Of a stretch of DNA of 64,000 nucleotides, positions 7,244 through 30,041 are shown in pieces. Made by a program: the position numbers and the translations under genes. The notes beneath the pieces were generated by a model. The model did not search any database, had not been told where the DNA came from, and was given only the letters and a program-made list of their open reading frames with translations. Position 1 is the first letter of the stretch; each line of letters begins with the position of its first letter. This DNA comes from Planctomycetota bacterium (GTDB lineage Bacteria > Planctomycetota > UBA11346), in the NCBI GenBank assembly GCA_038213805.1, contig JBBQSO010000024.1:1-64000 (forward strand), given 5' to 3'.

Positions 7244-7399
7244 TTAGTTGCGAGGGGGAACTGGTGCTTCAGGCAGGGTGATGGTGTGCCCCAGGCCGTC
7301 CTCAACCGAGCGGGTGCCGCGGAGGTAGGCGATGCCGACCAGCACGGCACCAATGACCAGGATCACCGCGATCGTGACCGTGGCGCGTTTGGGGATCAT
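7244..7399 (-). CDS. 51-aa single-TM small protein (MIPKRATVTIAVILVIGAVLVGIAYLRG...PPRN)
   Basis: Translated by hand; GGAGG RBS upstream of ATG; not in the ORF track. Confidence 0.65.
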   Translation of the reverse strand: MIPKRATVTIAVILVIGAVLVGIAYLRGTRSVEDGLGHTITLPEAPVPPRN

Positions 7400-7438
7400 G
7401 GCGACCTCCGCGACAGGGTGGCTGCTTCCATCTTCGGG

Positions 7439-7936
7439 TCATCCATCCTTGGCTGCCCGACCGCCGGCGCTGCGTCGCCGTCCGTCACGGTGGTCGGGAT
7501 CGAGGCGCTCCACCCGTTCCGGACGGACGGCGCCAGCAAGGTCATCGTCTTCCGCCCCGGGGGCGGTCGGCTCTGGCAATTCTTCACCAGCATCGCCGTC
7601 GAGGTCCTGCGGCAGGTCGTCCTCCTCGTTCTCGGTCGCCGTCAGGCCGTGGCGGTGGCGGTCGGCGATGCTGCCGGCGGCGTTGTTCGCGAGTTCCTTG
7701 GCGAGTCGGTCATCGCGGGCGCGATCGCTGACGTCGTCGGGGTGGCGCGTCTCCAAGCGCGATGGCGGCAGGCTGCGATCATCCTCCGCGCCGCCCCGAG
7801 AGGTCTCCGCGCTGGCCAGATGTGCGCGTGCCGTCTTCGTGGACACGGGTGAGGAAAGCGTCTTGGGCTTCACAGTCACCTTCTTGTTATGCGGAGGTTG
7901 AGCGGACTTTGCCGACTTGCCTGATGGTGTGGTCAT
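7439..7936 (-). CDS. Hydrophilic, likely disordered hypothetical protein (basic N-terminus, acidic C-terminal half)
   Basis: GGAG RBS; sigma-54-like promoter at 7968-7984. Confidence 0.6.
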   Translation of the reverse strand: MTTPSGKSAKSAQPPHNKKVTVKPKTLSSPVSTKTARAHLASAETSRGGAEDDRSLPPSRLETRHPDDVSDRARDDRLAKELANNAAGSIADRHRHGLTATENEEDDLPQDLDGDAGEELPEPTAPGAEDDDLAGAVRPERVERLDPDHRDGRRRSAGGRAAKDG

Positions 7937-7967
7937 GGCGGTTCTCCGTTCGGGTGTTAAGAGGAGA

Positions 7968-7984
7968 AGCTCTGGACATGCCAA
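7968..7984 (-). promoter_or_regulatory. sigma-54 -24/-12 element TTGGCATGTCCAGAGCT
   Basis: GG-N10-GC spacing, about 30 bp upstream of ATG 7936. Confidence 0.6.
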
Positions 7985-8333
7985 GGGATGCCGCCGCGAT
8001 CGTTCAGCATATACGCTGAAGGGAAGAACGCCGTAACAGCGGTTTAGGCTGCCATCCGTCAACAACCTAGAGCGGATCGGCGGAGCGGATCGGCGGCACG
8101 TGGGGCATCCGGAGTGCAAATCATCGTCACCGTCGGGCCCGGGCGGTGCGGATCGCAGCGTCGCACGCGGCCATCGCGGGTGGACCCGCATCGACCCCGT
8201 CATGCTGCAGGCGGATTTGGCGAGAGCGGTTGCACGCTGCACGATAGTGGTTCCCCCGCGACGGGTCCCGGGAGCCTATCGACCGCAAAAATGCGGTTGC
8301 GGCCGCACTTTTCGCCCAGCGGCAGTGAGCCAA

Positions 8334-8349
8334 TGGCACGCTTGCCGCT
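8334..8349 (+). promoter_or_regulatory. sigma-54 -24/-12 element TGGCACGCTTGCCGCT
   Basis: GG-N10-GC upstream of the BON gene. Confidence 0.6.
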
Positions 8350-8390
8350 CTCAGCGGTCTCCCGTCCCCAATAACCAAAGGAATAACACC

Positions 8391-9305
8391 ATGCGTCCTA
8401 CCCTTGCCTTCCTCGTGCCCGTCCTCGCCACCGGCCTCATCCTCGCGACCACGGGTTGCGATCAGCAGGCTGCGCGCAGCGACTACCCCGACAACTCCCC
8501 GCAGACGCACCGCCAGATCGACGAGATCCAGGCGGACGCGACGGCACGCAGGGCGGCCATCGACAAGCGCGCTGAGGAGAGGGCGACCGCGATCTCCTTC
8601 CACCGCGGTCAGATCTCGGACAAGGCCAAGGCCGATCGGGCCAAGATCGCGCTCGACCACGACCAGGCTGTCGCTCCGCTGAGCGCCAAGCGCGAAGCGA
8701 CCAAGGTCAAATACGATGCGCAGAAGCAGGAGATCGCCACTGCGCTCGCCAAGAAGCAGAAGGATAATACCGCCGAGGAGGCGCCCAAGCTGCTGGCGGA
8801 CGCCGCCGCCCAGACCGCCGAGGTTGACCGCAAGGAGACCGCGGAATTCGTCAGCATCGACCAGGACATCCGCTCCGCCGACGATACCGCCGCCAAGAAG
8901 AAGAACGACGTCGACGCCCAGGAGGCCAAGGACCTGGCAGATTGCGACCGTCAGCTGACCGAGACCAAGAACCAGGCGCGCGCGGACAAGCTCGCGGTCG
9001 ACAAGGACGTCAATGGCAAGGTCGCCAGTGTCGAAGGCGACAGCAAGTCGCGCATGGAGAAGACGCACGCCAGCGAGGACCGCACGCTCGAGAGCGATCG
9101 CAAGACCAGCGCCGCGGTGCGCGCGGACCTGGATGGCGACAAGGCCGTTGCGGCCAAATCCTCGGATGTGGCCATCACCACCAGGGACGGAGTGGTGACC
9201 CTGACCGGCACCGTGCCTTCCGATTATGACCGCCACGCCGTCATCGCCCGGGCCGGACAGACCAAAGGCGTGAAGAGCGTGGTGGATCAACTGTCCGTGC
9301 GTTGA
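8391..9305 (+). CDS. Lipoprotein with long coiled coil and C-terminal BON (OsmY-like) domain
   Basis: Lipobox TTG-C; C-terminal DGVVTLTGTV...AGQTKGVKSVVDQL; RBS AAGGA. Confidence 0.85.
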   Translation: MRPTLAFLVPVLATGLILATTGCDQQAARSDYPDNSPQTHRQIDEIQADATARRAAIDKRAEERATAISFHRGQISDKAKADRAKIALDHDQAVAPLSAKREATKVKYDAQKQEIATALAKKQKDNTAEEAPKLLADAAAQTAEVDRKETAEFVSIDQDIRSADDTAAKKKNDVDAQEAKDLADCDRQLTETKNQARADKLAVDKDVNGKVASVEGDSKSRMEKTHASEDRTLESDRKTSAAVRADLDGDKAVAAKSSDVAITTRDGVVTLTGTVPSDYDRHAVIARAGQTKGVKSVVDQLSVR

Positions 9306-9810: not shown

Positions 9811-9828
9811 CATGAACACGCACGCCGT

Positions 9829-10203
9829 TCAGGCGTTCGCGCGCGCCTTCTTCGCGGCGGGCTTCTTCGCCGGCGCCGCGCTGTCGTCGTCCGCATCCTT
9901 GGCGTGCGAGCGGCTGAGCGAGTAAAGGTAGGCGGAGACCGCGATCAGGCCCGCGGCTGCGACGGTGGTCTTGACCGGGTTCTTCTTCGCCCACTTGGCG
10001 AGATGGGTCGCCGAGTCGGTGACCTTCTCGACGGCGTCCTTGAGATATTTTTCGCCATTGTCGCCGATGGCACCCGCGAGCTTCTCCTTGAGGGTCTCGA
10101 AGCTGCCTGAGAGGGTGCTCTCGAGCGACGTCGAAATGGAGGAGAGGAGGGTGGACTTGATGTCCGAGATGGAATTCTTGGCGGTGACGGCTTTGCTGGC
10201 CAT
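9829..10203 (-). CDS. ElaB/YqjD(DUF883)-like tail-anchored small protein with K/A-rich tail
   Basis: WAKKNPVKTTVAAAGLIAV hydrophobic segment; AAPAKKPAAKK tail; RBS AAGGA. Confidence 0.6.
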   Translation of the reverse strand: MASKAVTAKNSISDIKSTLLSSISTSLESTLSGSFETLKEKLAGAIGDNGEKYLKDAVEKVTDSATHLAKWAKKNPVKTTVAAAGLIAVSAYLYSLSRSHAKDADDDSAAPAKKPAAKKARANA

Positions 10204-10240: not shown

Positions 10241-10399
10241 TCAGATGGTTCCGGTGAGGAGGAGGATGACGAGGATGATGCCGATCAGGCCGATCCCACC
10301 CGTCGGCGCGTAGCCCCAGTCGCGGCTATAGGGCCACAGCGGCAGAGCGCCGAGCAGGACGAGTACCAGCAGGACGACGAGGATGGTGTGGGTGTTCAT
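10241..10399 (-). CDS. DUF3309 family small membrane protein (52 aa)
   Basis: Hand translation: ...LLGALPLWPYSRDWGYAPTGGIGLIGIILVILLLTGTI, the DUF3309 signature. Confidence 0.88.
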   Translation of the reverse strand: MNTHTILVVLLVLVLLGALPLWPYSRDWGYAPTGGIGLIGIILVILLLTGTI

Positions 10400-10468: not shown

Positions 10469-10642
10469 TTGCGTTCGACTGCGGGATTTATCGTTTTTTG
10501 GACGCCCATTCATGGGAAATGATGGTAAAAACGCAGGATCGGACCCCGAAGATAGTGCGCCTTGCACGACCGGTCATCAGACGTGCTGCTGTAAAGCAGG
10601 CGTTCCACAGGGTGCGTTGCAACGACGCAGGGAAGTATTTCC

Positions 10643-10658
10643 TGGCACGATGGTCGCT
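10643..10658 (+). promoter_or_regulatory. sigma-54 element TGGCACGATGGTCGCT
   Basis: GG-N10-GC upstream of ATG 10735. Confidence 0.6.
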
Positions 10659-10734: not shown

Positions 10735-11004
10735 ATGATCATCGCCATCCGCATTCTGATGCTGAGTGCCGCTGTCTTTCTGACCGCTGCGTGCGGCCAG
10801 GGCGGCCAGGGCAGCCGTGCCATCACCCTCGACCAGACGCCCGAACCGGTGCGCAAGGCCATCCTCAATGAAGCGGCTGGAGACCCCATCGAACGGATCA
10901 CACAGGGGACCTTCGCCGGCAAGGAGTGCTATACGGTGTCCGTGGCACGCGCTGATCGGCGCTCCTGGTATTGCGTCGACAACCAGGGTCGGACGTGTGA
11001 ATGA
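10735..11004 (+). CDS. Small lipoprotein, PepSY-like
   Basis: Lipobox TAA-C; ITLDQTPEPVRKAI..EAAG..Y..VDNQG pattern; RBS AGGAG. Confidence 0.7.
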   Translation: MIIAIRILMLSAAVFLTAACGQGGQGSRAITLDQTPEPVRKAILNEAAGDPIERITQGTFAGKECYTVSVARADRRSWYCVDNQGRTCE

Positions 11005-11189
11005 TCACTCCGGTTGGCACGAATGCGGCGGATGCATGTACGTGTGACAGCACCCGTTAACACCATCGCAGTGGCATCCGGCCTGCTCTGCTGCAGGGTT
11101 GATATTCTGGTGTGTGGTACCTGGTATCTGCAGCAAGCTCGTCTAGGTGCCACCTAGACAGTCTGACATTTCTGATCTGCGGTTTCGTT

Positions 11190-11305: not shown

Positions 11306-11413
11306 TTACGAACAGCCGCGCATCAGTGCGACGATCAGGACGAGGGGGATCGGAACGCCGATCGCCCACAGCAGCATGGTGAGATTCACTTTCGCGGCGC
11401 GTAGGCGGTTCAT
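11306..11413 (-). CDS. 35-aa membrane microprotein MNRLRAAKVNLTMLLWAIGVPIPLVLIVALMRGCS
   Basis: Hand translation; LLWxIGVPIP motif of a widespread small-protein type; lies between DUF3185 and a terminator. Confidence 0.7.
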   Translation of the reverse strand: MNRLRAAKVNLTMLLWAIGVPIPLVLIVALMRGCS

Positions 11414-11671: not shown

Positions 11672-11712
11672 GATGACCTCAAATGTGTGGGTGATGGTTC
11701 TGGCTTTCCCAA

Positions 11713-11729: not shown

Positions 11730-12069
11730 TTCCGCACGTACGCAAGGCGGGGATCCATCGACGCGCCATTGCAGGGGCGGCATGAGTGAGGCAATTCCAT
11801 ATCAGAGCTCAGGATATGTTGCAGACATTGCAGCGATTCAGCCGCTTCCCGAGCTGCGGCATCGCGCCCATCCCGCGCCTGCAACGCTGGCACCAAGATG
11901 CTCTCTGATCCGGGATGGTGTAAGAAACCGTTCAAATTGCAGTGCTTCAGGGTGCATATTTGCCGATTCGGCAGGCTCGTCGAGCAGCCGTTGCACAGAA
12001 ATGACGATGCATGTGAGCGTTCGGCGCGGAATCACGCTGCTTCCTCTGACACCGGGGGTGCGCTGCACT

Positions 12070-12085
12070 TGGCACGGGAATGGCA
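12070..12085 (+). promoter_or_regulatory. sigma-54 element TGGCACGGGAATGGCA
   Basis: GG-N10-GC upstream of ATG 12123. Confidence 0.55.
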
Positions 12086-12122: not shown

Positions 12123-14102
12123 ATGACCGAGCCGCTGACCGTTGAAGTGCCTCCTGCCGATACGCCTCCTGCTGCGGCACCAGTCGATGTGCCACCGCCA
12201 GCGGCCGCGCCTGAGCACGCGCCGGCAGCGACCTCGAGATCCGCCGAGATGGCGGTGCCGGTCGTCGGCAGCGCACGCCTGCAGGCCGTGATCGGCAGTG
12301 GAGCTGATCGCGCGCGGCGTTGGTCTACACTGCGCGCGTACTTCCGGCTGCAGCCTGGTGCATGGTGGGAATGGGCGGTGATCTGGGCGCTGCAGAACGT
12401 GCGCTACTGCCCGGTCTACGTGCTGCCGTTGATGACCGCCTACCTCATCGACCACGCCACTGGCAAGGCCGGAGTGGCAACCTTCGATCTCGCCGGGGCG
12501 CTCTCCTGGGTGCTGCTCGCCACCCTCGGGTTGTGCGTCCTGACCGTGGCCAGCAACACCGTCGGCCGGATCATGCTCTCGCGCATCAGCCGCAATCTCA
12601 CCGCGTCGATGCGCACGGCGCTGATGCGGCGCGTCAACAAGCTCGACTTCGCCTTCCACGACAGCAGCGAACTCGGCTATCTGCAGAACAAGTTCACTCT
12701 CGACATGACCCGCCTGGAGGGCTTTGAGTCGTTCATCGCGGATGCGCTGCTGATGTACGGTACCGTCGTAATCATCATGCTGGGTGTGGTTTTGCACACG
12801 AACCCCTTGCTGTTCCTGGTCCTGGCCGTGGCGGTGCCGCTGAACCTGCTGATGGTGCGACTGTTCTGGGACCGCATAACCGCACTGAACGCCGAGTACC
12901 GCGAGGCCGAATCAAGCTTCCTGTCCCGTCTGAACGAGGCGCTCAACGGCATCCGCCTGACGCGAGCGCATTCCGCGGAGCGCTTCATCGAGGACCGCGT
13001 CTCCAGCGCCGCCGGCAAGGTCGCACGTAAGGCCATACGCCTTGACCTGATGAGCAACCTCTTCGGCTCGGGCTCGTGGGCGATCGGCACCTTCCTCAAC
13101 ATGTGCGTGATCGGCCTGGGCGTCTGGCTGATGGCCTCCCAGGGCCACCAGATCACGGTCCTTGGCCATCAGTTCACGTTCGCGCCCCTGACCATCGGCG
13201 AGTTCACCATCCTGATCAGCTACTACGCAACCATCAGCGGCGCCCTCGGCGCCATTCTCGGCAGCTTGCCGCAGGTCGCCGCGGCAAGCGACGCGATCTC
13301 CTCCCTCGGGCAGATCTATGCGGATGAGAACGACGGCCAGAGCGCCCGGGGACGCACCCGCATCCGCACGCTGCGCGGCGAGGTCACCTTCGAGCGCGTC
13401 ACCTTCGACTACGCGAACGCCGGGCGCCATTGCCTGGCCGGCATCGATTTGACGCTGCCGGCCGGCGCCGCGGTGGCCCTGGTCGGCCCGTCGGGCGGGG
13501 GCAAGAGCACCATCGCCAGCCTCATCCTCGGTTTCTATGCGCCCACCAGCGGTCGTGTGCTGATCGACGGGCAGGACCTGGCGACGCTCGACCAGCGCAG
13601 CTTCCGTCGCCATGTCGGGGTGGTGAACCAGGACGTGGTGCTGTTCCAGGACACCGTCATGGCGAATATCGCCTGGGGCGACCGCCGCCCCGACCTGCGG
13701 CGCGTGCGCCAGGCGGCCGAGCGCGCCAACGCTATGGAGTTCATCGACAAGCTCAGCGACGGCCTCGACCACGTGCTGGGTGACCGCGGCGCCGGGCTGT
13801 CGGGTGGCCAGCGCCAGCGTCTGGCCATCGCGCGGGCGCTCTACCGCGATCCGCGGCTGCTCATCCTCGATGAGGCGACCAGCGCGCTCGATCTCGAGAG
13901 TGAGCGCCTGGTGCAGCAGGCCCTTGAAGAGGTCAAAAAGGACCGCACCACCCTGATCATCGCGCACCGCCTCTCGACGGTGCGCAAGGCCGACCGCATC
14001 ATCGTCATCAAGGACGGCAAGGCGGTCGAATCGGGCACCTATGACGAGCTGATGGCGCGCGATGGCGAATTCCGCCAGCTCGTCCAGGGCCAGTTGGCGT
14101 GA
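12123..14102 (+). CDS. ABC exporter, fused permease/ATP-binding (MsbA-like)
   Basis: TM domain plus GPSGGGKST, LSGGQRQR, LILDEATSALD, IAHRLST. Confidence 0.92.
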   Translation: MTEPLTVEVPPADTPPAAAPVDVPPPAAAPEHAPAATSRSAEMAVPVVGSARLQAVIGSGADRARRWSTLRAYFRLQPGAWWEWAVIWALQNVRYCPVYVLPLMTAYLIDHATGKAGVATFDLAGALSWVLLATLGLCVLTVASNTVGRIMLSRISRNLTASMRTALMRRVNKLDFAFHDSSELGYLQNKFTLDMTRLEGFESFIADALLMYGTVVIIMLGVVLHTNPLLFLVLAVAVPLNLLMVRLFWDRITALNAEYREAESSFLSRLNEALNGIRLTRAHSAERFIEDRVSSAAGKVARKAIRLDLMSNLFGSGSWAIGTFLNMCVIGLGVWLMASQGHQITVLGHQFTFAPLTIGEFTILISYYATISGALGAILGSLPQVAAASDAISSLGQIYADENDGQSARGRTRIRTLRGEVTFERVTFDYANAGRHCLAGIDLTLPAGAAVALVGPSGGGKSTIASLILGFYAPTSGRVLIDGQDLATLDQRSFRRHVGVVNQDVVLFQDTVMANIAWGDRRPDLRRVRQAAERANAMEFIDKLSDGLDHVLGDRGAGLSGGQRQRLAIARALYRDPRLLILDEATSALDLESERLVQQALEEVKKDRTTLIIAHRLSTVRKADRIIVIKDGKAVESGTYDELMARDGEFRQLVQGQLA

Positions 14103-20016: not shown

Positions 20017-20187
20017 TCAGCGCGACCCGCGGCGGAACAGGCTGAAAATCGCCGAGAGGATGAAGAGCACGATGAACAGGAAGAACAGCACCTTGGCGAT
20101 CTCGATGGCGCTTCCATCGATGCCGCCGAACCCGAGCAGCCCCGCGAGCAGCGCGATGATGAAGAAAGCTGCGGACCAGTAGAGCAT
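20017..20187 (-). CDS. DUF1328 (UPF0391/YtjA) small membrane protein
   Basis: MLYWSAAFFIIALLAGLLGFGGI..IAKVLFFLF. Confidence 0.92.
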   Translation of the reverse strand: MLYWSAAFFIIALLAGLLGFGGIDGSAIEIAKVLFFLFIVLFILSAIFSLFRRGSR

Positions 20188-20298: not shown

Positions 20299-20710
20299 TG
20301 CTACAAGTGTCGGTATGCCAACGGCCCTATCTCTTCGCCAACCAGTAGCCCACCGATGCGTGCAGGACCATGGATGGAGGTCGAAGGCGGTTGCATCACG
20401 GGCTTCTCGTGAAGATGACGACGTCAAGCCCGAGGTGCCGCTGGGAATTTCGCGCTGACAGTGGGAGCATCCACGCATCCCCATGCAGGATGCCCGATGG
20501 CCACTGCTTTCCAGGGTGCAGTCTGCACCCTGACCATGGACGTGGGATCGTGTTATCTACGCGCTAGAGGCTGTCACTTCGGACCCAGAAAAGGCATCGA
20601 GCGTGCCGCGCTGAAGCGCGCTGCGAGACGCAGAAAACCGCATAAATTCCGCGTTTTTTCCTATTGGCGAATTCATTCTGTTGGAGATATGGGCACGGCC
20701 CCCAGGGCTT

Positions 20711-20727
20711 TGGCACGTCTTGCGCCA
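20711..20727 (+). promoter_or_regulatory. sigma-54 element TGGCACGTCTTGCGCCA
   Basis: GG-N10-GC; also fits on the minus strand. Confidence 0.55.
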
Positions 20728-20840: not shown

Positions 20841-21371
20841 ATGTCCATCTTCACCCGTCCTCTGCCGCTGCGTCTCGTCGCTGGCTGCTCCCTGTTCGCC
20901 GCTGCCATGGCCCCGCTCGCCGCCATGGACAACCTGGGCGCCGACAGCTCGTACCCGCGCGTCGGCGGCGAAGTGCTGTTCGGCACCAGCGGCTTCGAGC
21001 CGGGCATCGACGCCGCATGGCGTTTCCACACCATGTCCTCGACCATGATCATCCGTCCCGAACTGACCCTCAGCGAGGATTCGCGCCCGGGTGTCGCAAT
21101 CTCGGTCAGCTGGAACCTGGACATGCTCAACCTGCCCAAGAACCAGACCCTGAGCGTCGGTCCGCGCATCGCGTGGCACAACAGCGATGATCACGGCCTT
21201 GAGGGCGGCCTGATGGGTCTCTACTCGTTCGATTTTATGAACGACCGTCCCGGTCACCACTTCTTTGAAGTGATCGGCGTCGCGGGTCTGGTCGAGGACA
21301 AGAGCAACGACAACGACAAGGCGACGCGTTTCGGCGGCACCATCGGTGTTGGCTACTCGTATCAGTTCTAA
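20841..21371 (+). CDS. Small outer-membrane beta-barrel protein
   Basis: Signal peptide; C-terminal GVGYSYQF; RBS GGAG. Confidence 0.72.
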   Translation: MSIFTRPLPLRLVAGCSLFAAAMAPLAAMDNLGADSSYPRVGGEVLFGTSGFEPGIDAAWRFHTMSSTMIIRPELTLSEDSRPGVAISVSWNLDMLNLPKNQTLSVGPRIAWHNSDDHGLEGGLMGLYSFDFMNDRPGHHFFEVIGVAGLVEDKSNDNDKATRFGGTIGVGYSYQF

Positions 21372-21619: not shown

Positions 21620-22618
21620 ATGAACACCATGCTCCTCCGTGTCCTCATCATCGCCGCGGCTACGGCGATGACCTTGGCATGGTGGTTCCATGGCCCATCG
21701 TCGACCCCGCTTGCGCTGCGCCTGGGTACGACCCGCACACCCTTTTCAGCCGAGGTATGGCTCGCAGCGTCTCGCGGTTATTTTGCCGCCGAGGGACTCG
21801 CCGTGACGGTCGTCCCCTACGGCTCCGGCAAGCTTGCCCTCGCAGACATGCTCGCCGGCAAGGTCGACTTCGCCACGGCGGCCGACACTCCCATCATGTT
21901 CGCGCTGGTTGACGATCTGCCCCTGCGCGTGCTCGCGACGCTCGTCACCTGCAGCGATGCGGTCGAGATGGTGGCGCGCCGCGACCGTGGCATCGCCACC
22001 GGGCGCGACCTCGCGGGCCACCGTGTCGGCGTGGTAACGGGAACGAACTCGCAGTACTTCCTCGACACTTTCTTGGAGGTCAGTGGCCTCGCCGCCGGCG
22101 TGATCGAGCGCGTGGCCCTGGAAACCGACGACCTGGCGCCGGCGCTTGCGGACGGACGGGTTGATGCGATCGCGGCCTGGACGCCGTACTCGGTACGCGC
22201 GAAAGCACTGCTGGGCGACCGTGCGGTGAGCATGCGCGTCGGCAGCATGTACCGCTGGACCTGGAACCTCGTTGCATCCGGCGTCGGGGACAACCCGGGC
22301 GCTGCCGGGGTCCTGCGCGCCCTGCGACGCGCGGCCGCGGACCTTCTGGCGGATCCCGTCGGGGTCGCGACCGAGGTCGCCGGGCAGCTCGGATTGCCAG
22401 CCCAGTCGCTGCCGGACGAGTGGCGCCACACCCACTTCGAGGTGACGATCGATCAGGCCCTGATCGTCAACCTCGAGATGCAGGCGCGTTGGGCGATCGG
22501 CTGCGGGCTGGCCAGGCCCGGTGCCGTTCCCGACTTCCTGCCGGCGATGGCCCCGGGCCCGCTGCGTGGGATCGACCCGGCGCTGGTCACGCTGATCGAT
22601 GGCAAGGACCCGCGATGA
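21620..22618 (+). CDS. NrtA/SsuA/NMT1-like substrate-binding protein
   Basis: GYFAAEGL, SGKLALADMLAGKVDFA, DLAGHRVGV..GTNSQY, GRVDAIAAWTP. Confidence 0.85.
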   Translation: MNTMLLRVLIIAAATAMTLAWWFHGPSSTPLALRLGTTRTPFSAEVWLAASRGYFAAEGLAVTVVPYGSGKLALADMLAGKVDFATAADTPIMFALVDDLPLRVLATLVTCSDAVEMVARRDRGIATGRDLAGHRVGVVTGTNSQYFLDTFLEVSGLAAGVIERVALETDDLAPALADGRVDAIAAWTPYSVRAKALLGDRAVSMRVGSMYRWTWNLVASGVGDNPGAAGVLRALRRAAADLLADPVGVATEVAGQLGLPAQSLPDEWRHTHFEVTIDQALIVNLEMQARWAIGCGLARPGAVPDFLPAMAPGPLRGIDPALVTLIDGKDPR

Positions 22619-25035
22619 CGCTGCGCCGCACCGCAACCGTCGCGGTCGTATCGGTCAGCCTGCTGCTGCTGCTCTTGCTCGTGCAGCTGATCCGCTCCGG
22701 CGACACCACCAGGCGGCTGGACGGTTTGAGCGCCCAGGCCAATGGCATCACTGCGACCGTGTCCTCGCTGGACCACCTGGTCTACGAGTACCTGCTGCAG
22801 CCACACGCGCGCCCCGCGCAGCAGTGGCGCCTGCTCAGCGCGCAGCTGGGCGGCCAGCTCGACGACCTGGAGGCGGCTGGCGGCGACGCTGCAGCGGTCG
22901 CGGGCCTGCGCCGCGAGCTGGGCAAGGCGCACGAGCTGTTCGAGGCGCTGGTCGACGAGATGAAAGGCGGTGGCCCCGACCAGGCTGCTCTGGCCGCGCG
23001 TCGCAGCCGCATCGCCGAACAGATGCTGCTGGGCTCGCGCGCGATGTCTCAGGAGGCGGCGCGCATCCATCGCCTCGCCATCCGGCAGCGCGCCACCGTG
23101 CAGTCGCGGGACAGCCTGATCGCGATCGGGGCGCTGGCGGCGACCTTCGGTATGCTCGCCTGGCTGCTCATGCACGTGCGGCGGCGCGTGCTGCTGCCGC
23201 TGGATGCGCTGCAGCGCAGCACCGAGCGCGTCTCCGCAGGCAACCTCGACCAGCAACCCGGCGACATGCGCGCCGACGAGATCGGCGACCTCGCGCGGGC
23301 CTTCGACCGGATGGTGGGGCAGCTGCGCGAATCGCGCCGCCTGCTCCAGGCCGAGGAGTCCAAGCGCGCCGGCGAGGAGCGCCAGCGCCAGCTCATCGAC
23401 GCGCTGCCGGGGTTGGTCTGGGCGGCGCGCCCCGACGGCGCCAGCGAAGCCTTCAACCGCGCCTGGCGCACTCAGCTCGGCGTCGATGCCGACGCGCCCG
23501 GCTTCGATTGGACCGCACTGCTGCATCCGGACGACGCGTCCCTCTGGCGGCAGACCTGGAAGCGCGCCCTGGCTGGCGCCGGACCGATCCAGTGCCAGTT
23601 CCGCCTCGATTGCCGCGGCGAATGGCGGTGGCACCTGGCGCGCGTGGCGCCGCTGTGCGACGCGCAGGGCCGCCTCGTGTTATGGGTCGGCACCGCTGCC
23701 GACATCCATCAGCATAAGGACCTTGAGGACCACCTGCGCCGTTCGCGCAACCAAGCCGAACTGCTCAATCAGGCAGGGCTCGACCTGGTCGCCGAGGTCG
23801 ACGTCGAACGCCTCTGCCAGCGCGTCACCGCCGCGGCCACCGCCCTGGCCGGGGCGGACTTCGGCGCCTTGTTCCTCGACGTCAGCGATTCCGACCGCGA
23901 TGGCCCGCACCTGCACCATGTCGCCGGTCTGCCCGCCACCGCCGCCGTCGACTTCCCGCCACTCGAGTTGGCCGCGCTGTTCCCGACGGAGTACCCCGGG
24001 CAGGCGATCGTGCGCTGTGAGGACGTGCTCGTCGATCCGCGTTACGCGGCCGCCGTCAGCGGGCACGTGCCGGGGGGGATGGCGGTACGCAGTTACCTGG
24101 CGGTTCCGCTGCGCACGCGCTCCGGCCGCATCATCGGGGGCATCTACTGCGCGCACGCCCAGCCCGGCCGCTTCAGCCTGCACCATGAGCGCCTGGTCGC
24201 GGGCATCGCCGCGCTGGCCGCCATCGCCCTCGACAATGCCCGTCTGTTCGAGGGCGAGCGCCGGCAGCGCCGCCTGGCCGACAACCGCGCCGGGGAGCTG
24301 GCCCGTTCCAACGCCGAGCTCGAGCAGTTCGCCTACATCTGTTCGCACGACCTGCAGGAGCCGCTGCGCATGATCAGCTCGTTCCTGGGGCTGCTCGAGG
24401 AGCGCTACCGCGAGCAGCTCGATGAGCGCGGGCGCGGCTTCATCGCCCGCGCGGTCGCTGGGGCGAGCCGCATGCAGAACCTGATCCGCGACATCCTGTC
24501 CTTCTCGCGGGTCAGCCGCGGCGAACGCGCCGAGGAGCGGCTGGCGCTGCGCGAGGCGCTCGACGAGGCGCTCAGCAACCTCCAACCGCAGCTCGATGCC
24601 GCGCATGCGACCGTCGAGGTCGGCATCCTGCCGGTGGTGCGCGGCAACCGCCTGCAGTTCCTCCAGCTGTTCCAGAACCTGGTCGGCAACGCCCTCAAGT
24701 TCACCGACGGCCGCCCGCCGCTGATCCGCATCGCCGCCCTGCGCGAGGAGTCGGGCTGGCGGGTCAGCGTCGCCGACAACGGCATCGGCATCGCGCCCGA
24801 ACACCACCGCCGGATCTTCCAGGTCTTCCAGCGCCTGCACGGGCGGGAGCGCTTCGAAGGCACCGGCATCGGCCTGAGCCTGTGCGAAAAGATCGTCCTG
24901 GCGCACGGTGGCACCATCGGCGTCGAATCGCAGCCAGGTGAGGGCGCGACGTTCTGGTTCACCCTCCCGGATGGTGACACCAGTGGGGTCATGGCGGCGG
25001 TGCAGGGTACGCCGATCGGCGACGGAATCGCCTGA
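22615..25035 (+). CDS. Membrane sensor histidine kinase (TM-HAMP-PAS-GAF-HisKA-HATPase)
   Basis: DEIGDLARAF, LHPDD, GAF, SHDLQEPLR, NLVGNALKF, DNGIGI, GTGIGL; ATGA overlap with the upstream gene. Confidence 0.92.
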   Translation: MTLRRTATVAVVSVSLLLLLLLVQLIRSGDTTRRLDGLSAQANGITATVSSLDHLVYEYLLQPHARPAQQWRLLSAQLGGQLDDLEAAGGDAAAVAGLRRELGKAHELFEALVDEMKGGGPDQAALAARRSRIAEQMLLGSRAMSQEAARIHRLAIRQRATVQSRDSLIAIGALAATFGMLAWLLMHVRRRVLLPLDALQRSTERVSAGNLDQQPGDMRADEIGDLARAFDRMVGQLRESRRLLQAEESKRAGEERQRQLIDALPGLVWAARPDGASEAFNRAWRTQLGVDADAPGFDWTALLHPDDASLWRQTWKRALAGAGPIQCQFRLDCRGEWRWHLARVAPLCDAQGRLVLWVGTAADIHQHKDLEDHLRRSRNQAELLNQAGLDLVAEVDVERLCQRVTAAATALAGADFGALFLDVSDSDRDGPHLHHVAGLPATAAVDFPPLELAALFPTEYPGQAIVRCEDVLVDPRYAAAVSGHVPGGMAVRSYLAVPLRTRSGRIIGGIYCAHAQPGRFSLHHERLVAGIAALAAIALDNARLFEGERRQRRLADNRAGELARSNAELEQFAYICSHDLQEPLRMISSFLGLLEERYREQLDERGRGFIARAVAGASRMQNLIRDILSFSRVSRGERAEERLALREALDEALSNLQPQLDAAHATVEVGILPVVRGNRLQFLQLFQNLVGNALKFTDGRPPLIRIAALREESGWRVSVADNGIGIAPEHHRRIFQVFQRLHGRERFEGTGIGLSLCEKIVLAHGGTIGVESQPGEGATFWFTLPDGDTSGVMAAVQGTPIGDGIA

Positions 25036-25044: not shown

Positions 25045-25060
25045 TGGCACGGATGGCGCC
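25045..25060 (+). promoter_or_regulatory. sigma-54 element TGGCACGGATGGCGCC
   Basis: GG-N10-GC upstream of ATG 25145. Confidence 0.5.
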
Positions 25061-25144: not shown

Positions 25145-25612
25145 ATGACCGACCAGGCTCATCCGCCATCACTCCCACAGCCGTCGGGCGCAGCCACAAC
25201 CACCAAGCTGGCACCGGCGATCCTGGTCGTCGACGACAATCCCGGCGACATCGAACTGGTGCGCATCGCGTTCGAGATGAGTGACATCGAAGTGCGCCTG
25301 GACTGGGCGACCGACGGTCATGAGGCCATGCGCCGCCTGGAACGCTGCCTGACGAGCGCTGCGGCGCTGCCCGACCTCATCCTGCTCGATCTCAACATGC
25401 CGCGCGCCAACGGCTTCGAAGTCCTGCGCTTCCTGAGCGACATGGGCCTCAGTGCGCGCATCCCCGTGATCGTGCTGTCGACTTCGCGCCAGGCTGAGGA
25501 TCGCCGCCGCTGCCTGGAACTGGGGGCGCGCGAATTCCGCACCAAGCCCGAGCTGATCCGCGACCTGGTGGACATGGTCCGCTCGCTGCAGCCGTATCTC
25601 ATGGGAAAATGA
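25145..25612 (+). CDS. Single-domain response regulator (Rcp1-like)
   Basis: ILVVDDNPGD, PDLILLDLNMP, LSTS, TKP. Confidence 0.9.
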   Translation: MTDQAHPPSLPQPSGAATTTKLAPAILVVDDNPGDIELVRIAFEMSDIEVRLDWATDGHEAMRRLERCLTSAAALPDLILLDLNMPRANGFEVLRFLSDMGLSARIPVIVLSTSRQAEDRRRCLELGAREFRTKPELIRDLVDMVRSLQPYLMGK

Positions 25613-25921: not shown

Positions 25922-27307
25922 TTACAGCCCCAGGCGCTGGCGCTTGCGCCACAGCGTGGACGGCTCGATGCCGAGGATGCGCGCAGCCTCGTCGAAAGTG
26001 TCGGTGCGCGCCAGGACCTTGCGGATGTGTTCGGTTTCGATGACGTCGAGCGAGCAGTTGCCACCCAGGTTGGGCGCCGGCTCGGCCTGCCCGCGCAGGC
26101 GCGGCGAGAAGGCCTCGGGCTCGATGGTGCGCGAGGGCCACAGCACAGTGATGCGCTGCAGTTCATTGCGCAGTTCGCGCACGTTGCCGGGCCAGGTGTA
26201 GGCGACCAGCAGGTCGCGCGCCGCCGGCGACAGCTCGCGCACCGGCGCCCCGGTCGCCGCGGCAAAGCCTGCGAGCAGCTTCATCGCCAACAGGATGATG
26301 TCCTCTTTGCGGTCACGCAGGGGCGGCAGGGTGATCTCGACGACGTTGAGGCGGTAGAGCAGGTCCTCGCGGAAGCGCCCTTCCGTCACCGAGGTCTCGA
26401 GGTTGCGGTTGGTCGCCGCGACGATGCGCACGTCGGCCTGGCGCGTGCGCGTGTCGCCGAGGCGCTCGTAGCGCTGCTCCTGCAGGAAGCGCAGCAGTTT
26501 GGCCTGTACCGCCTGGCTGAGGTCGCCGAGCTCGTCGAGGAACAGCGTGCCACCCTCGGCGGCCTCGACCTTGCCGCGCTGATCGGCGACTGCGCCGGTG
26601 AAGGCGCCCTTGACGTGGCCGAACAGATCGCTGGTCATCAACTCGTCGGCCAGGGCCGGGCAGTTGACAGTCACGAACGGCCCCTTGGCGCGCTCGCTGC
26701 GCTGGTGCAAAGCCTGCGCGAACATGCTCTTGCCGGTACCGTTCTCGCCGCGCAGCAGCACCGGGATGTCGGCGAGCGCAGCACGCCCAACCATTTCCAG
26801 CGCGGCGCGCATCGACGGTGATGACGAGCTGGTGTCGATCTCGAGGCGCCCGCCGCCGCGCTCGAAGGCCGCGAGGTTGCTGGCGATGCGGCGGCTCTCG
26901 CGCACGTGCGCCACCAGTTCGCGCACCTGCAGCTGGGTGAACGGCTTGGGCATGTAGTTGCTGGCGCCGGCCTTCATCGCCTGCACCGCGGTCTCGTACG
27001 AGGCGAAGGCGGTGATCACCACGATCTGCAGGTTTGGATTCGCGGCGACCAGGCGCGGTAGCAAGGTCAGCCCGTCGTGCTCGGCGATACGCAGGTCGCA
27101 GAAGGCCAGGTCGTAGACATGGTCGCGCAGGTAGGCGAGCGCGGCTTCAGGTGCCGCCGCGATGTCGGTCTGGCAGCCCATCCCCTTGAGGTCGATGGCC
27201 ATACGTGCGCACAGCTGGCGATCATCGTCGATCACCAGGATGCGCAGGGGGGTGGGGGCGGCCTCGGGCTGGGCGGAAACGGTCGGGGTGGTCATGAGTT
27301 CGGTCAT
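25922..27307 (-). CDS. sigma-54-dependent response regulator (REC-AAA+-Fis HTH; AlgB/ZraR-like)
   Basis: GENGTGKS, GAFTGA, FLDE, FREDLLYRL, WPGNVRELRN, LGIEPSTLWRK. Confidence 0.93.
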   Translation of the reverse strand: MTELMTTPTVSAQPEAAPTPLRILVIDDDRQLCARMAIDLKGMGCQTDIAAAPEAALAYLRDHVYDLAFCDLRIAEHDGLTLLPRLVAANPNLQIVVITAFASYETAVQAMKAGASNYMPKPFTQLQVRELVAHVRESRRIASNLAAFERGGGRLEIDTSSSSPSMRAALEMVGRAALADIPVLLRGENGTGKSMFAQALHQRSERAKGPFVTVNCPALADELMTSDLFGHVKGAFTGAVADQRGKVEAAEGGTLFLDELGDLSQAVQAKLLRFLQEQRYERLGDTRTRQADVRIVAATNRNLETSVTEGRFREDLLYRLNVVEITLPPLRDRKEDIILLAMKLLAGFAAATGAPVRELSPAARDLLVAYTWPGNVRELRNELQRITVLWPSRTIEPEAFSPRLRGQAEPAPNLGGNCSLDVIETEHIRKVLARTDTFDEAARILGIEPSTLWRKRQRLGL

Positions 27308-27437: not shown

Positions 27438-27824
27438 ATGACAGCGCAGATCCTGATCGTCGAGGACAACCCGGACGAGGCCGAGCTGTTCCGGGCCGCA
27501 CTCGATGAGGTCGCCGCGGACGTGCGCGTGGCGGTGGCCGGCAGCGCCGGCGCCGCGCTCGAGCTGCTCGCAGGCGCTGGCGAATGGCCGCGCGTGCTGG
27601 TAACCGATCACCACCTGCCCGACCTCAGCGGCCAGGAGCTGATCCGCCGCGTGCTCGCGCAGCCGCGGGGTGCCCTGCTCGGCTTGGTGATGCTCTCGGG
27701 CGACACCCATGCACCGGAGCTGCCCGCGCCGGCCGTGTGGCGGGCGAAGCCCCAGACTTGGAATGCCTGGCGCACATGGGCCCGCGAGCTGGTCGACGGC
27801 CACGTGCGCATCCCCGGCGGCTGA
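27438..27824 (+). CDS. Single-domain response regulator
   Basis: ILIVEDN, VTDHHLPDLSG, AKP. Confidence 0.8.
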   Translation: MTAQILIVEDNPDEAELFRAALDEVAADVRVAVAGSAGAALELLAGAGEWPRVLVTDHHLPDLSGQELIRRVLAQPRGALLGLVMLSGDTHAPELPAPAVWRAKPQTWNAWRTWARELVDGHVRIPGG

Positions 27825-28056
27825 TGCCGGGCAGCAGTCGTTCGCATACGGGCGGATGGCAGCAAGGCGGTTCGACATCGCGGGCATCAGTGCACATCGC
27901 GTGCCATCAGTGCAGACCGGCGTCCAAAGCGCAGGCCGGCGCGGCCGATAGCGGCGACATCAGTGGAGCCAAAGTACCTCAAGGGCGCAGCCCGAGTCAG
28001 CCCCACCACTGCGGCGTGCGGTCTGGTCATGGCCCAGATCGTGCACTATGCAGCGC

Positions 28057-29088
28057 TCACTGCTCCGCGAACGATAGTCGCACGGTGGTCCCGCGTCCCG
28101 CTGCAGATTCTAGCCAGGCGCGGCCGCCATGGCCCTCAGCGACCGCGCGGCAGAGCGCCAAGCCGACTCCGGCGCCATATTCAGGACCGCGTCCACCGGT
28201 GGCGAACAGCCGGAAGAGGTGGGCCTGGTCGCGGGGTTCGATGCCGCGTCCGTTATCGGCGACGCTGAGCACGGACATCCCATCCGCATGGACGAGGCTG
28301 ATCACCGCCTGAGCCGGCGTGCCGGGCAGGGTGAAGGTCGCGGCGTTTCCGAGCAGCTGGGCCAGTGCCAGCGCGACCTGCCGCGCATCGCAGCGCAGCG
28401 TGCCGTCGGTGGCGACGTTCACCGCGACCTGCGCGTCCATCGGCAGCAGGGCGCGGGCAGCCTCAATCAGCGTGGCGAGCGCCACGCTGCCGTCGCAGGC
28501 CGGCGGGCTGAGGCGCGCGTAGTCGACCAGCGCGCGCAGCTGGCGCTGCACCCGCGCCGTGGCGGCGGTGGCGCTGGCCAGGCTGGCCCGGATGTCGCCG
28601 CCGCTCGCAAGGCGTTCTTCGATGAGGCTGAGATGGACGCTGGCCATGCGCACCGGCTCCTGCGCATCGTGCGAGAGCGCGCCGCCGAGTTCGGCGAGGC
28701 GCTGCCACGGCAGCGCGTCCACGGCCGGCGCCGGCGTCCCAACGAGCGGCTGCACGCGTTGGAGGATGCCGTCCGGTGCGGCGCAAAGCTCGACCATGGC
28801 AGCGAATTCGGCGCCGCGTGCGGGGCGGAAGCGCCGGCTGTACTGCGCGCTGGCGGCGCCGCTGGCGATGCGCACCAGCGCGTCGAGCTCGGCATCCAGG
28901 TCGAGGGGGTGGCCGATGCGTTCATAAGACCAGCCGAGCAGCGTCGCCTCGTCCGCGCCCAGCAGGCGGCAGCAGGCGGGATTGACCGCGCGATACCGGT
29001 GGTCGGCGCCGAGCACCGCGAGCGCCACCGACGATTCGGACCAGAAGCCCTGCCACCAACTTCCGGGCTGTCCAATAGCGTTCTGCAT
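28057..29088 (-). CDS. Cytoplasmic PAS histidine kinase
   Basis: VNPACCRLLG..HPLD PAS; SHDAQEPVR; DNGRGI; GAGVGL. Confidence 0.85.
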   Translation of the reverse strand: MQNAIGQPGSWWQGFWSESSVALAVLGADHRYRAVNPACCRLLGADEATLLGWSYERIGHPLDLDAELDALVRIASGAASAQYSRRFRPARGAEFAAMVELCAAPDGILQRVQPLVGTPAPAVDALPWQRLAELGGALSHDAQEPVRMASVHLSLIEERLASGGDIRASLASATAATARVQRQLRALVDYARLSPPACDGSVALATLIEAARALLPMDAQVAVNVATDGTLRCDARQVALALAQLLGNAATFTLPGTPAQAVISLVHADGMSVLSVADNGRGIEPRDQAHLFRLFATGGRGPEYGAGVGLALCRAVAEGHGGRAWLESAAGRGTTVRLSFAEQ

Positions 29089-29135
29089 CGCGGCGGAGTG
29101 TGAGCGCGGATCGGGCCGTTGCTACAGCGGTGATA

Positions 29136-29151
29136 TGGCACGCCGTATGCG
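29136..29151 (+). promoter_or_regulatory. sigma-54 element TGGCACGCCGTATGCG
   Basis: GG-N10-GC upstream of ATG 29240. Confidence 0.65.
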
Positions 29152-29239
29152 GAACCGATCAGTTGACGCTCACGCGTGTCGCGGACTCGGCACCCCGCCA
29201 GTTCGCGGCTTCGCACGCCAAACTCCCGAGGTCCCTTAC

Positions 29240-29461
29240 ATGACACGCCCACTCAATGCACGCACCCTCCTCTTCGTTGCGGGGTTCTTCGCGCTCGCTG
29301 GTTGCGGTGACGCCACCGGTCAAGGGCCAGCCCAGCAGGCTGGTAAGGCCGTGGACCGGGCCGCCGAAAAGACCGGCGAAGTCCTCAAGGAAGGCGCGCA
29401 GAAGACTGGTGCGGCAGTCGAGAAGGCCGGCGAGAAGATTCAGGACGCCACTACGAAGTGA
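29240..29461 (+). CDS. Small LEA/CsbD-like amphipathic lipoprotein
   Basis: Lipobox LAG-C; GPAQQAGKAVDRAAEKTG..EKAGEKIQDA repeats; RBS GAGG. Confidence 0.8.
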   Translation: MTRPLNARTLLFVAGFFALAGCGDATGQGPAQQAGKAVDRAAEKTGEVLKEGAQKTGAAVEKAGEKIQDATTK

Positions 29462-29687
29462 GCGCTATCGGGGCGCTCGAAATCCGCTGGTGGAGCGGGC
29501 GACTCCGGGACGGACTATCAGACCCAACTGAGTTGGGACACGATCCACTTAATCCCGCCGCTGGCTGGATCAGGCGTTCCATGGGCATTCGCCAAGGCCT
29601 GAATCACGCGGGCCCCGACAACCTACCCTCGTGTGCTTGCATGCGAAAATAGCGGCGTGTGGCGAGATCGGGAATCGCGTCTGCCGC

Positions 29688-29984
29688 TCAGGCGACGGCG
29701 CGGTCGATCGTCCTGCTCATCGCCAGCGAGCTGCGCGTTCCGCTCTCGCGCCGTCCCGGTTCAACTTCGCCACCGGCATCGCGCACCAGGTCGCTGGCGT
29801 ACGAACGCTCGGCCGGCCCGTCCACGCGCACCAGGAAGCGGATCACACCGCCATCATCGGGGTCGTGTCCGATGAATTCGGGATCGGGGAAGCCTACGGT
29901 ACGCAGCTGGTGCAGGATCTCGGCGGCGAGGTGGTGGTCGGCGGCGACCGCGACGATGGTCTCACTGGGGGCGACGACGAGCAT
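29688..29984 (-). CDS. Small hypothetical protein
   Basis: 98 aa; AAGG RBS and a sigma-54 element at 30025-30041. Confidence 0.55.
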   Translation of the reverse strand: MLVVAPSETIVAVAADHHLAAEILHQLRTVGFPDPEFIGHDPDDGGVIRFLVRVDGPAERSYASDLVRDAGGEVEPGRRESGTRSSLAMSRTIDRAVA

Positions 29985-30024
29985 GGCGCGTACCTTGGGC
30001 TGGTGGGTGTTCTTGACGATTCCC

Positions 30025-30041
30025 TGGCACGCTGCGTGCCA
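30025..30041. promoter_or_regulatory. Palindromic TGGCACGC-T-GCGTGCCA; GG-N10-GC on both strands
   Basis: Read directly. Confidence 0.6.

Follow-up and report, generated by a model that had tools for sequence, protein, structure and literature searches.

The stretch of DNA analysed here, 64,000 nucleotides of a planctomycete genome (G000:C24:1-64000, hereafter the window; genome G000 is 90% complete), contains at positions 7244-30041 an island in which about fourteen sigma-54-type promoter boxes are combined with genes for a transcriptional activator of the AlgB family, two kinases and three receivers. The activator likely binds palindromes of the form TGCA-N3-TGCA and, as judged from sequence, would drive sigma-54-dependent transcription of a gene set of the general-stress type. 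We give this reading a probability of roughly two thirds (0.66), a figure which covers the whole of it, including the general stress programme, with stress induction and sigma-54 dependence both predicted. The island is the putative core of a regulon that extends over the genome with roughly 20-25 promoters and is in turn a branch of a wider sigma-54 set. AlgB, its binding site and its mechanism are already known; the new element is an enhancer of the promoters, found de novo, whose sequence is that of the known AlgB site.

Sigma-54 boxes and a palindromic enhancer

Genes were called with a hexamer-based caller, so that some gene starts are uncertain, and domains of island proteins were assigned with Pfam and its cut-offs. 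The non-coding DNA of the island comprised 23 gaps (5,742 nt) and that of the flanks 6,422 nt; the chance level for promoter boxes was taken from 300 dinucleotide shuffles of the former, with both strands counted. Seventeen matches to TGGCAY-N7-GC were present in the island's non-coding DNA as compared to 1.07 +/- 1.0 after shuffling (maximum 5). The altered spacings N6 and N8 yielded one match each, and the flanks contained a single match to the motif. An earlier note, made from the letters of the window alone, had listed 15 GG-N10-GC elements, 14 of them starting with TGGCAY and 13 placed ahead of a correctly oriented start, and had judged them to exceed chance, with none seen ahead of the flanking genes that were spot-checked. 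The observation was confirmed: the 15 elements were present (minus-strand coordinates had been set one base lower than where the 15-mer starts on the forward numbering), the exception to TGGCAY was the site at 10467(-), which reads TGGTCC, and 13 of 16 sites lay 32-115 nt ahead of a start in the correct orientation. One more, 30025(+), was found 129 nt ahead of argJ, and the box at 27906(-) lay 584 nt ahead of the activator gene. Two non-coding matches, 11072(+) and 16337(-), were additional to the earlier list.

In 2,955 upstream regions of G000, TGGCAY-N7-GC occurred 90 times in the sense and 44 times in the antisense orientation, with counts of 31-45 for other spacings, which suggests roughly 50 true sites genome-wide. 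The frequency of GC following TGGCAY peaked only at +13 (27% vs 8-15% at other offsets). A missing rpoN and a lack of motif conservation had been named as points to check; rpoN is present as a single, intact gene (C126:5294-6769(-), 491 aa), and boxes are kept ahead of rearranged stress genes in relatives. Together with the position of the GC and the sense-strand bias, these findings support the proposed sigma-54 wiring, and the boxes of the island are very probably sigma-54 promoters. The rpoN gene is itself preceded, at 67 nt, by a sigma-54-like box (score 13.0) without an enhancer.

The boxes at 17464-17480, 20711-20727 and 30025-30041 have the palindromic form TGGCA-N7-TGCCA, and a sigma-54 promoter can be read on both strands; such double-reading boxes also occur in loci L138, L146, L148 and L154 (L002-L157 denote loci fetched from relatives, L212-L220 loci from other Planctomycetota families). 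These palindromes are what favours the view that the motif arose by chance or is half of a site for an ordinary transcription factor. That view is highly unlikely given the 17 matches against 1.07 in shuffles, the single spacing, the sense-strand bias and the distance to starts, and the same box is found before flagellar genes and rpoN. Sigma-54 control of argJ was rejected, as it would depend on the plus reading of a palindromic site without an enhancer. Likewise, a 189-aa open reading frame (ORF) at 27318-27887(-) was rejected as target of the 27906 box because it overlaps the gene for receiver REC3; a 186-aa gene at the corresponding place in relatives has no clear homologue in G000. At 11015 and 11072, sigma-54-like boxes have no ORF behind them and are followed by a perfect 14-bp hairpin (11198-11231). 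This region may possibly specify a small RNA or a two-way terminator; no Rfam match came near the gathering score, no second copy was found in G000 or in the fetched loci, and an enhancer was absent.

The enhancer was sought by counting word pairs in 90 promoters, 76 from relatives and 14 from the window. The de novo motif TGCA-N3-TGCA was present in 27 of the 90 promoters vs 17 of 1,200 background regions and was refined to Y-C-V-TGCA-nWn-TGCA-B-G-R. Its distance to the box was phased at about 11 bp (Rayleigh p about 1e-5), which places the predicted enhancer on one helical face of the promoters, and a second, weaker copy was often found 31-32 bp from the first. With a matrix trained on relatives only, scores of at least 10 were obtained for 17 of 76 sigma-54 promoters of G000 vs 2.3% of 2,705 control windows. 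At a score of at least 8 the same matrix detected the enhancer in 6 of 10 island and 8 of 10 outlying stress promoters; among other G000 promoters the counts were 0/7 (flagellar), 2/7 (chaperone/Psp) and 0/3 (nitrogen). For the 16 island sites, an enhancer of this score was located within 200 bp in nine cases and within 300 bp in 12. Enhancer sites of the window are centred at 8236, 10561, 11936, 17573, 17599, 20489, 28047 and 30088, several of them between divergent promoters. Genome-wide, 94 strong palindromes were counted, 65 of them in intergenic DNA, which makes up 16% of the total; a box was found near 17 of these 65 vs 2.6% of random positions. Several of the intergenic palindromes without a box adjoin genes for receivers or Dps-like or glgX-like genes.

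The AlgB protein of Pseudomonas aeruginosa binds two TGCANNNTGCA repeats 20 bp apart in electrophoretic mobility shift assays, and binding is lost when the repeats are scrambled (PMC12780092). The de novo enhancer and its spacing, which were found before this comparison was made, agree with that site. Predicted tandem sites of the TGCANNNTGCA type lie about 31 bp apart at the targets here, as do the tandem TGCANNNTGCA sites of P. aeruginosa AlgB (31 bp).

The activator, its relatives and its kinases

The earlier note had credited the island with its own GAFTGA activator, two kinases and three receivers. Pfam recovered exactly this inventory, with REC-AAA-HTH architecture and GAFTGA in the activator. 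Relatives of the activator are often named AlgB by JGI and NCBI. The recognition helix was GIE[PST]STLWRKR or a near match to it in every one of the 25 orthologue loci, and it was different in the 12 other activators of G000; GAFTGA or GSFTGA was intact in the orthologues. Among 250 sampled gammaproteobacterial genomes the best match was a 448-aa protein whose gene is followed downstream by a kinase with the Pfam domain KinB_sensor. Conversely, of the G000 proteins the island activator was the best match to this KinB-linked protein (47% identity; 373 vs 271 bits), so that within the genomes compared the two are best matches in both directions. A FastTree phylogeny of 44 sequences, including ten G000 paralogues (11 redundant rows were dropped and one locus was skipped), placed KinB-linked proteins and the activators of the class in one clade (support 0.99) apart from LuxO and the G000 paralogues. 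By these sequence comparisons the activator is assigned to the AlgB family, with orthology judged against KinB-linked gammaproteobacterial proteins. It resembles AlgB of P. aeruginosa in its REC-AAA-HTH organization with GAFTGA, in clade and in a similar recognition helix, and there is good reason to expect that it works through the palindrome. The earlier proposal of a local activator as the switch thus gains support from the enhancer, an element that had not been noticed before.

LuxO, which together with sigma-54 controls Qrr RNAs in Vibrionaceae, shares with the island system the core TGCA-N3-TGCA (LuxO site TTGCAWWWTGCAA), paired sites and a helix with P-S-T (PMC10162802). The island activator differs from it in clade, in scoring 321.5 bits vs a cut-off of 800 with NCBIfam model NF041946, and in having proteins as targets; identity with LuxO was rejected on the first two grounds.

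Comparison genomes were those of the class, represented by one family of 48 genomes including close relatives of G000. An orthologue of the activator was found in 20 of them, and in nine of these 20 fragmented assemblies its distance to DUF1328 was no more than about 10 kb. The class activators make up a single clade, with variable flanks. In L005 a phage-like block with a toxin-antitoxin-like pair (11685-21340, by eye) directly follows the activator gene. In relatives, neighbourhoods were reshuffled while boxes were kept before genes for ferritin/Dps-like, DUF2383, DUF4142, DUF883_C, KGG, BON and DUF1328 proteins. A box was present within 250 nt of the best DUF1328 locus in 9 of 30 genomes (antisense 0/30), and some of the other loci lie inside operons; elsewhere in the phylum 8 of 26 DUF1328 loci had a box (antisense 0/26) and none an enhancer scoring above 7. 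The combined cassette of enhancer and box was matched 67 times in the 20 genomes with the activator vs 17 times in the 28 without, as compared to 8 and 7 matches for a reversed control pattern; at least two matches were present in 13/20 and 3/28 genomes, respectively. Among nine AlgB-like loci of other Planctomycetota families, box and enhancer were found in two (scores 15.6 and 9.7). In L218 and L219 they lie just past the activator gene. AlgB-like activators of L212, L217, L218 and L220 are paired with KinB-like HAMP-PAS kinases near genes resembling Kdp- or Trk-type potassium transport (by eye).

Outside the phylum, a planctomycete-trained matrix was applied to algB-kinB loci of one gammaproteobacterial family, which from the presence of algB-kinB is taken to be the pseudomonads. 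Box and enhancer were found in 28 of 30 loci vs 2 of 30 windows around other activators, and 28 of 40 sites in this family had a spacing of 102-104 bp. Genes behind the cassette were DUF2383, BON, DUF1328 units and a microprotein ending in WVF; elsewhere in these genomes the cassette precedes BON and then CsbD. In L299, L304 and L306 the WVF-ended microprotein (with a MucE/DimA-like tail) is encoded behind the cassette and upstream of DUF1328, in L299 also upstream of a gene for an Ivy lysozyme inhibitor. In total, 161 cassettes were counted in 38 genomes with AlgB vs 29 in 23 genomes without (reversed control 34 and 5), the latter genomes being smaller. A pattern search across Gammaproteobacteria gave matches in 64 of 201 genomes and is too loose to be interpreted alone. 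Strings resembling sites for IHF were spotted by eye in the algB-kinB family. The system of this family differs from that of the island in having about four matches per genome, counted with a narrower pattern, vs roughly 20-25 clustered promoters.

These distributions bear on the possibility that the promoters are driven by one or more other activators of G000, with the island protein as an accessory. There are 13 strong PF00158 matches in G000, the binding of LuxO to the same core means that unrelated activators can read it (PMC10162802), and two genomes have the cassette although a search for the orthologue found none in them. Nevertheless this is quite improbable, as the AlgB-type helix is present only in the island protein, as this protein stays near DUF1328 in the nine assemblies mentioned above, and as cassette counts follow the presence of the activator in two distant groups.

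With respect to signal input, the transmitter of the 806-aa island kinase matched best one histidine kinase and then bacteriophytochromes. A PHY domain, and with it a bacteriophytochrome photosensor, was not found in G000, and KinB gave no PF16767 match and a best blastp identity of about 27% in this 90% complete genome. G000 encodes twelve kinases of the same transmitter type and 16 further short receivers similar to REC2, which suggests many inputs. In P. aeruginosa, BphP phosphorylates AlgB as well as AlgB orthologues from other classes (bioRxiv 10.1101/747618). By analogy, the island activator may be fed by light-blind kinases of the phytochrome transmitter type. The arrangement is like BphP-AlgB-KinB in its bacteriophytochrome-type transmitters, the predicted positive feedback on the activator and the small envelope proteins among the targets, and unlike it in that KinB and the photosensor were not found, only the transmitter type being common to both. 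In Alphaproteobacteria, many kinases and single-domain receivers converge on one general-stress regulator, and G000 would resemble them in this respect.

In the proposed mechanism the two island kinases would phosphorylate D71 of the activator directly or via the three receivers. The phosphorylated protein would oligomerise on paired sites 31-32 bp apart and, through looping, open the closed complexes of sigma-54. The activator gene is faced by the 27906 box, which has the strongest enhancer, and in some relatives this gene is directly preceded by a box. Positive feedback is therefore suggested, in which the activator and several receivers would be among the targets. Output of the island would comprise BON, DUF1328, DUF3309 and DUF3185 proteins and lipoproteins, and that of other loci KatE, DUF4142, DUF2383 and trehalose and glycogen enzymes; these products would give protection from osmotic and oxidative stress and from desiccation. 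Other activators would serve the flagellar and chaperone branches of the sigma-54 set.

Target genes and the stress reading

Of the target families named in the earlier note, BON, DUF3309, DUF3185 and DUF1328 were identified by Pfam, whereas the ElaB-, YqjE- and LEA-like proteins remained below the cut-off. Boxes outside the island were assigned to genes by Pfam naming of 40 of them. They precede genes for (i) flagellar and chemotaxis proteins (FlhA, FlhB, FlgE/F, FlgD, MotA, CheR); (ii) ClpB, GroEL, HtpG, Hsp20, Lon, DnaJ and PspA (clpB, groEL, htpG, hsp20, lon, dnaJ and pspA boxes on contigs C20, C92, C102, C41, C12, C35 and C27); (iii) nitrogen functions; and (iv) a long catalase (katE), DUF4142, hemerythrin, a GH15 trehalase, two alpha-amylase-family enzymes, DUF3309, DUF2383 (as the second gene of a unit) and a pyridoxamine-oxidase-like protein. 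Members on other contigs also include treZ-like and glgX-like genes and second copies of DUF3309 and DUF1328. Flagellar and most chaperone promoters have a box and no enhancer. At least ten stress units lie on other contigs, and a second cluster (C35:34955-48960) has eight boxes before DUF4142, catalase, hemerythrin, a methyltransferase unit and dnaJ genes. Since rpoN and many members of the set are located elsewhere, the description of the island as self-contained was not upheld.

By Pfam the predicted regulon holds the protective families BON, DUF1328, KatE, DUF4142, DUF2383, ferritin-like, GH15 trehalase and alpha-amylase-family enzymes. BON/OsmY, DUF1328, KatE, Dps-like proteins, DUF4142 and trehalose enzymes are markers of general stress responses in RpoS, SigB and EcfG systems. 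In P. aeruginosa, PA14_62680 and PA14_62690 are presumably CsbD and BON genes. Far-red light activates AlgB through BphP in that organism and increases expression (log2 values) of catalase HPII (3.7), glycogen synthase and three glycosyl hydrolases (3.1-3.3), trehalose synthase (2.6) and OsmC and OsmE (1.9-2.0), while four universal stress proteins are down-regulated (PMC12780092, Supplementary Data 6). PA14_62680/62690 respond with 3.3 and 2.7, and still with 2.8 and 2.4 in the absence of dimA; PA14_72360 and PA14_72370, numbered just before algB and adjacent to it, respond with 1.6-1.7 (PMC12780092).

It is unlikely that the wiring is as described while the programme is narrower, i.e., an osmotic, envelope or life-stage response to one signal. 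This would fit the many membrane, periplasmic or outer-membrane proteins among the targets, the membrane kinase with a small-molecule binding partner, and the AlgB-like pairs of other Planctomycetota families near potassium-transport-like genes (by eye). It fits less well with cytoplasmic KatE, hemerythrin, DUF4142, DUF2383, ferritin/Dps-like proteins and trehalose enzymes in the same regulon or clusters, or with the many inputs suggested by twelve kinases and 16 further receivers.

With respect to other sigma factors, RpoS models gave best scores of 263.8 and 224.5 vs a cut-off of 378.7 and SigBFG a best score of 123.1 vs 234.35, with EcfG, PhyR and NepR families outside this search. EcfG-type promoter strings were found before none of the targets, and one SigB-like string was located at 10493. 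The score of 224.5 belongs to a 269-aa group-2-like factor (G000:C43:5202-6011); a cascade from sigma-54 to this factor was rejected since no box is present upstream (best score 0.9). AlgB works with AlgU at algD. It is conceivable on these grounds that the AlgB-type protein binds the palindrome and partners an extracytoplasmic function (ECF) or group-2 sigma factor, the -24/-12 boxes being secondary or repressive, and the weak -12 elements and the factors available (about 48 of ECF type plus the group-2-like one) fit such an arrangement. It is very improbable in view of the helical phasing between enhancer and box, the intact GAFTGA/GSFTGA of the orthologues and the absence of EcfG-type motifs before targets, and AlgB of P. 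aeruginosa induces dimA without need for AlgU (PMC12780092).

A number of findings weigh against an AlgB- and sigma-54-driven stress regulon. The -12 element is weak, a T preceding the GC at 7 of 16 sites; the good boxes at 25045, 29136 and 30025(+) have no enhancer, and four island promoters reach one only at 190-250 bp. Within 200 bp of 48 of the 65 strong intergenic palindromes no sigma-54 box is present, and an exact match to the IHF consensus was found in 0 of 90 promoters. The phasing and co-occurrence statistics were obtained from related promoters and genomes, which are not independent, and the division into stress and non-stress promoters was made after the scores had been seen and left 39 of 76 promoters unclassified. 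No match to enhancer plus box occurred in 5 of the 20 genomes with the activator, G035 (77% complete) and G013 (62%) hold the cassette and no activator was found there, and most AlgB-like loci of other Planctomycetota families are without the cassette. The targets include an ABC exporter, PF10136 and beta-barrel proteins, which are not known stress genes. The numerous ECF-type factors and the group-2-like factor could carry a parallel stress response, and the light response of P. aeruginosa, being partly mediated by AlgU, may be indirect.

To our knowledge, no general-stress sigma factor has been described in Planctomycetota. General-stress roles of RpoS and SigB are described in PMC3162934. 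The putative G000 regulon resembles RpoS, SigB and EcfG-PhyR systems in its marker families, and is unlike them in that control would be exerted by an ATP-driven activator at sigma-54 promoters, no RpoS or SigB being found at cut-off. Predicted sigma-54 boxes of Planctomycetota precede chaperone, protease, flagellar, UspA, MscS and receiver genes (PMC12316311; PMC2754498), in line with the G000 boxes before clpB, groEL, htpG, lon and flagellar genes. In the text searched, however, there is no mention in PMC12316311 of a general-stress regulon, of DUF1328, of OsmY or of catalase, and an activator or enhancer for genes of this kind is given in neither paper. AlgB has been described as a regulator of alginate, biofilm and virulence, and RpoN or sigma-54 is unmentioned in the searched parts of PMC12780092. 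The literature searched contained no description of a general stress regulon run by sigma-54 or AlgB, a novelty which earlier work on either may narrow.

For Planctomycetota the island provides a concrete wiring, with promoter, enhancer, activator, kinases and a target list, and it connects an uncultured lineage to the well-studied regulator AlgB. Helix and motif together offer a marker by which sigma-54 stress islands of other phyla might be sorted. From the cassette beside algB-kinB, genes under direct and RpoN-dependent control by AlgB can be predicted (BON-CsbD, DUF1328, DUF2383 and the WVF-ended microprotein). As a tentative extension, for which we see somewhat poorer than even odds when all its parts are taken together, AlgB-type activators and sigma-54 may form an unrecognised fourth general-stress route beside RpoS, SigB and EcfG. 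The BON/CsbD/DUF1328/DUF2383 cassette would then be the ancestral AlgB regulon from the planctomycete class to the algB-kinB Gammaproteobacteria, with control of alginate and virulence in Pseudomonas added later, and the activator would here be the master switch of the stress response, with input from a dozen light-blind kinases of the phytochrome type and from single-domain receivers. If true, this would bear on the target genes of AlgB and their sigma factor and would recast AlgB as a stress regulator.

Features of the island and its surroundings

Predicted genes, sigma-54 boxes and enhancer cores of the island, with the basis of each assignment. Scores of boxes are from a position weight matrix (PWM), those of enhancers from the enhancer matrix.
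Coordinates	Strand	Feature	Basis
7244..7399	-	51-aa membrane peptide, second gene behind 7983 promoter	Gene model; no Pfam
7439..7936	-	165-aa acidic/basic low-complexity protein	ATG 32 nt behind box; no Pfam
7969..7983	-	Sigma-54 -24/-12 box, PWM 14.6	Motif scan
8231..8241		AlgB-type enhancer core, 8.8; 98 bp ahead of 8334 box	Matrix
8334..8348	+	Sigma-54 box ahead of BON gene	Motif scan
8391..9305	+	BON/OsmY-type lipoprotein, 304 aa	PF04972 above cut-off; orthologues with box and enhancer
9829..10203	-	124-aa protein, ElaB/DUF883-like by resemblance only	No Pfam; atlas DUF883_C/CsbD leads 0.79-0.81 (<0.9)
10241..10399	-	DUF3309 small membrane protein	PF11752
10453..10467	-	Degenerate sigma-54 box TGGTCC, PWM 8.9	Motif scan
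10556..10566		Enhancer core, 13.0; common to divergent 10467/10643 promoters (94 and 82 bp)	Matrix
10643..10657	+	Sigma-54 box	Motif scan
10735..11004	+	89-aa predicted lipoprotein	Gene model; no Pfam
11015..11029	+	Sigma-54-like box without ORF or enhancer; chance or small RNA	Motif scan
11306..11413	-	35-aa membrane peptide	Gene model; homologues adjoin activator in L143, L144
11465..11671	-	DUF3185 small membrane protein	PF11381
11714..11728	-	Sigma-54 box	Motif scan
11931..11941		Enhancer core, 16.7; 134 bp ahead of 12070 box, 208 bp ahead of 11728 box	Matrix
12070..12084	+	Sigma-54 box	Motif scan
12123..14102	+	MsbA-like ABC exporter	Domain models; orthologues adjoin activator in L147, L151
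14338..16236	+	PF10136 protein (Pfam name 'site-specific recombinase', label only)	Pfam
16725..17405	-	Outer-membrane beta-barrel-like protein	Weak PF13505; orthologues in L005, L145, L146
17466..17480	-	Sigma-54 box, 21.2	Motif scan
17568..17604		Two enhancer cores, centres 17573 (13.5) and 17599 (10.9)	Matrix
17780..17794	+	Sigma-54 box, 22.0	Motif scan
17875..18309	+	Single-domain receiver REC1	PF00072
18372..19499	-	Zinc-ribbon/Peptidase_Mx protein, last gene of DUF1328 unit	Pfam
19566..19943	-	125-aa membrane protein, YqjE/PF07332-like lead	Atlas 0.86-0.89 (<0.9); no Pfam
20017..20187	-	DUF1328 (UPF0391) small membrane protein	PF07043
20283..20297	-	Sigma-54 box, 19.2	Motif scan
20484..20632		Enhancer cores 20489 (10.6), 20522 (6.6; 33 bp from 20489) and 20627 (6.9)	Matrix
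20711..20725	+	Sigma-54 box	Motif scan
20841..21371	+	176-aa exported beta-rich protein	Gene model; in L004, L146 and L154 homologues follow box and enhancer
21620..22618	+	NMT1-type periplasmic binding protein, overlaps kinase start	PF09084; best PDB match a sulfonate-binding protein
22615..25035	+	Membrane kinase HAMP-PAS-GAF-HisKA-HATPase, bacteriophytochrome-type transmitter, no PHY	Pfam, PDB matches
25045..25059	+	Sigma-54 box without enhancer, conserved in L002, L139, L157	Motif scan
25145..25612	+	Receiver REC2, resembles response regulators of bacteriophytochromes	PDB matches 8avv, RcpA, Rcp1
25922..27307	-	AlgB-family enhancer-binding protein: REC (D71), AAA+ GAFTGA (234), helix GIEPSTLWRKR (446)	Pfam, tree
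27438..27824	+	Single-domain receiver REC3	Pfam
27892..27906	-	Sigma-54 box facing activator (584 nt, through REC3 antisense)	With enhancer conserved in L004, L005, L139
28042..28052		Strongest enhancer core in window, 17.4; 141 bp ahead of 27906 box	Matrix
28057..29088	-	Cytoplasmic PAS-HisKA-like-HATPase kinase, stays beside activator in genus g1	Pfam, relatives
29136..29150	+	Sigma-54 box without enhancer	Motif scan
29240..29461	+	73-aa lipoprotein, Lys/Ala/Glu repeats (LEA/CsbD-like by eye)	No Pfam; orthologues behind box in L003-L006
29688..29984	-	98-aa protein outside known families	Gene model; no Pfam
30025..30041		Palindromic double box; minus reading (19.9) with enhancer, plus reading toward argJ without	Motif scan
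30083..30093		Enhancer core, 16.5; 47 bp ahead of 30041(-) box	Matrix

Neither tRNA genes nor, apart from the PF10136 label, an integrase family recognized by Pfam were found in the window. A GGA-rich long hairpin repeat of about 130-145 nt has two copies in the window (9571-9715 and 16456-16585, 78% alike) and at least nine further copies on other contigs, with short matches in relatives; it corresponds to no Rfam family. Outside the island, at 37644-40050, 40449-43214 and 53502-55503, the window encodes a further activator of the NtrC type together with a kinase, as well as two ECF sigma factors. A gene that by eye looks FecR-like comes after each of the two sigma factor genes. These regions show no link to the island motif. 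Finally, the window encodes two peptides, each about 30-35 aa long with RGCS at the C-terminus, that resemble each other, one at 11306-11413 and the other, outside the island, at 61443-61538.

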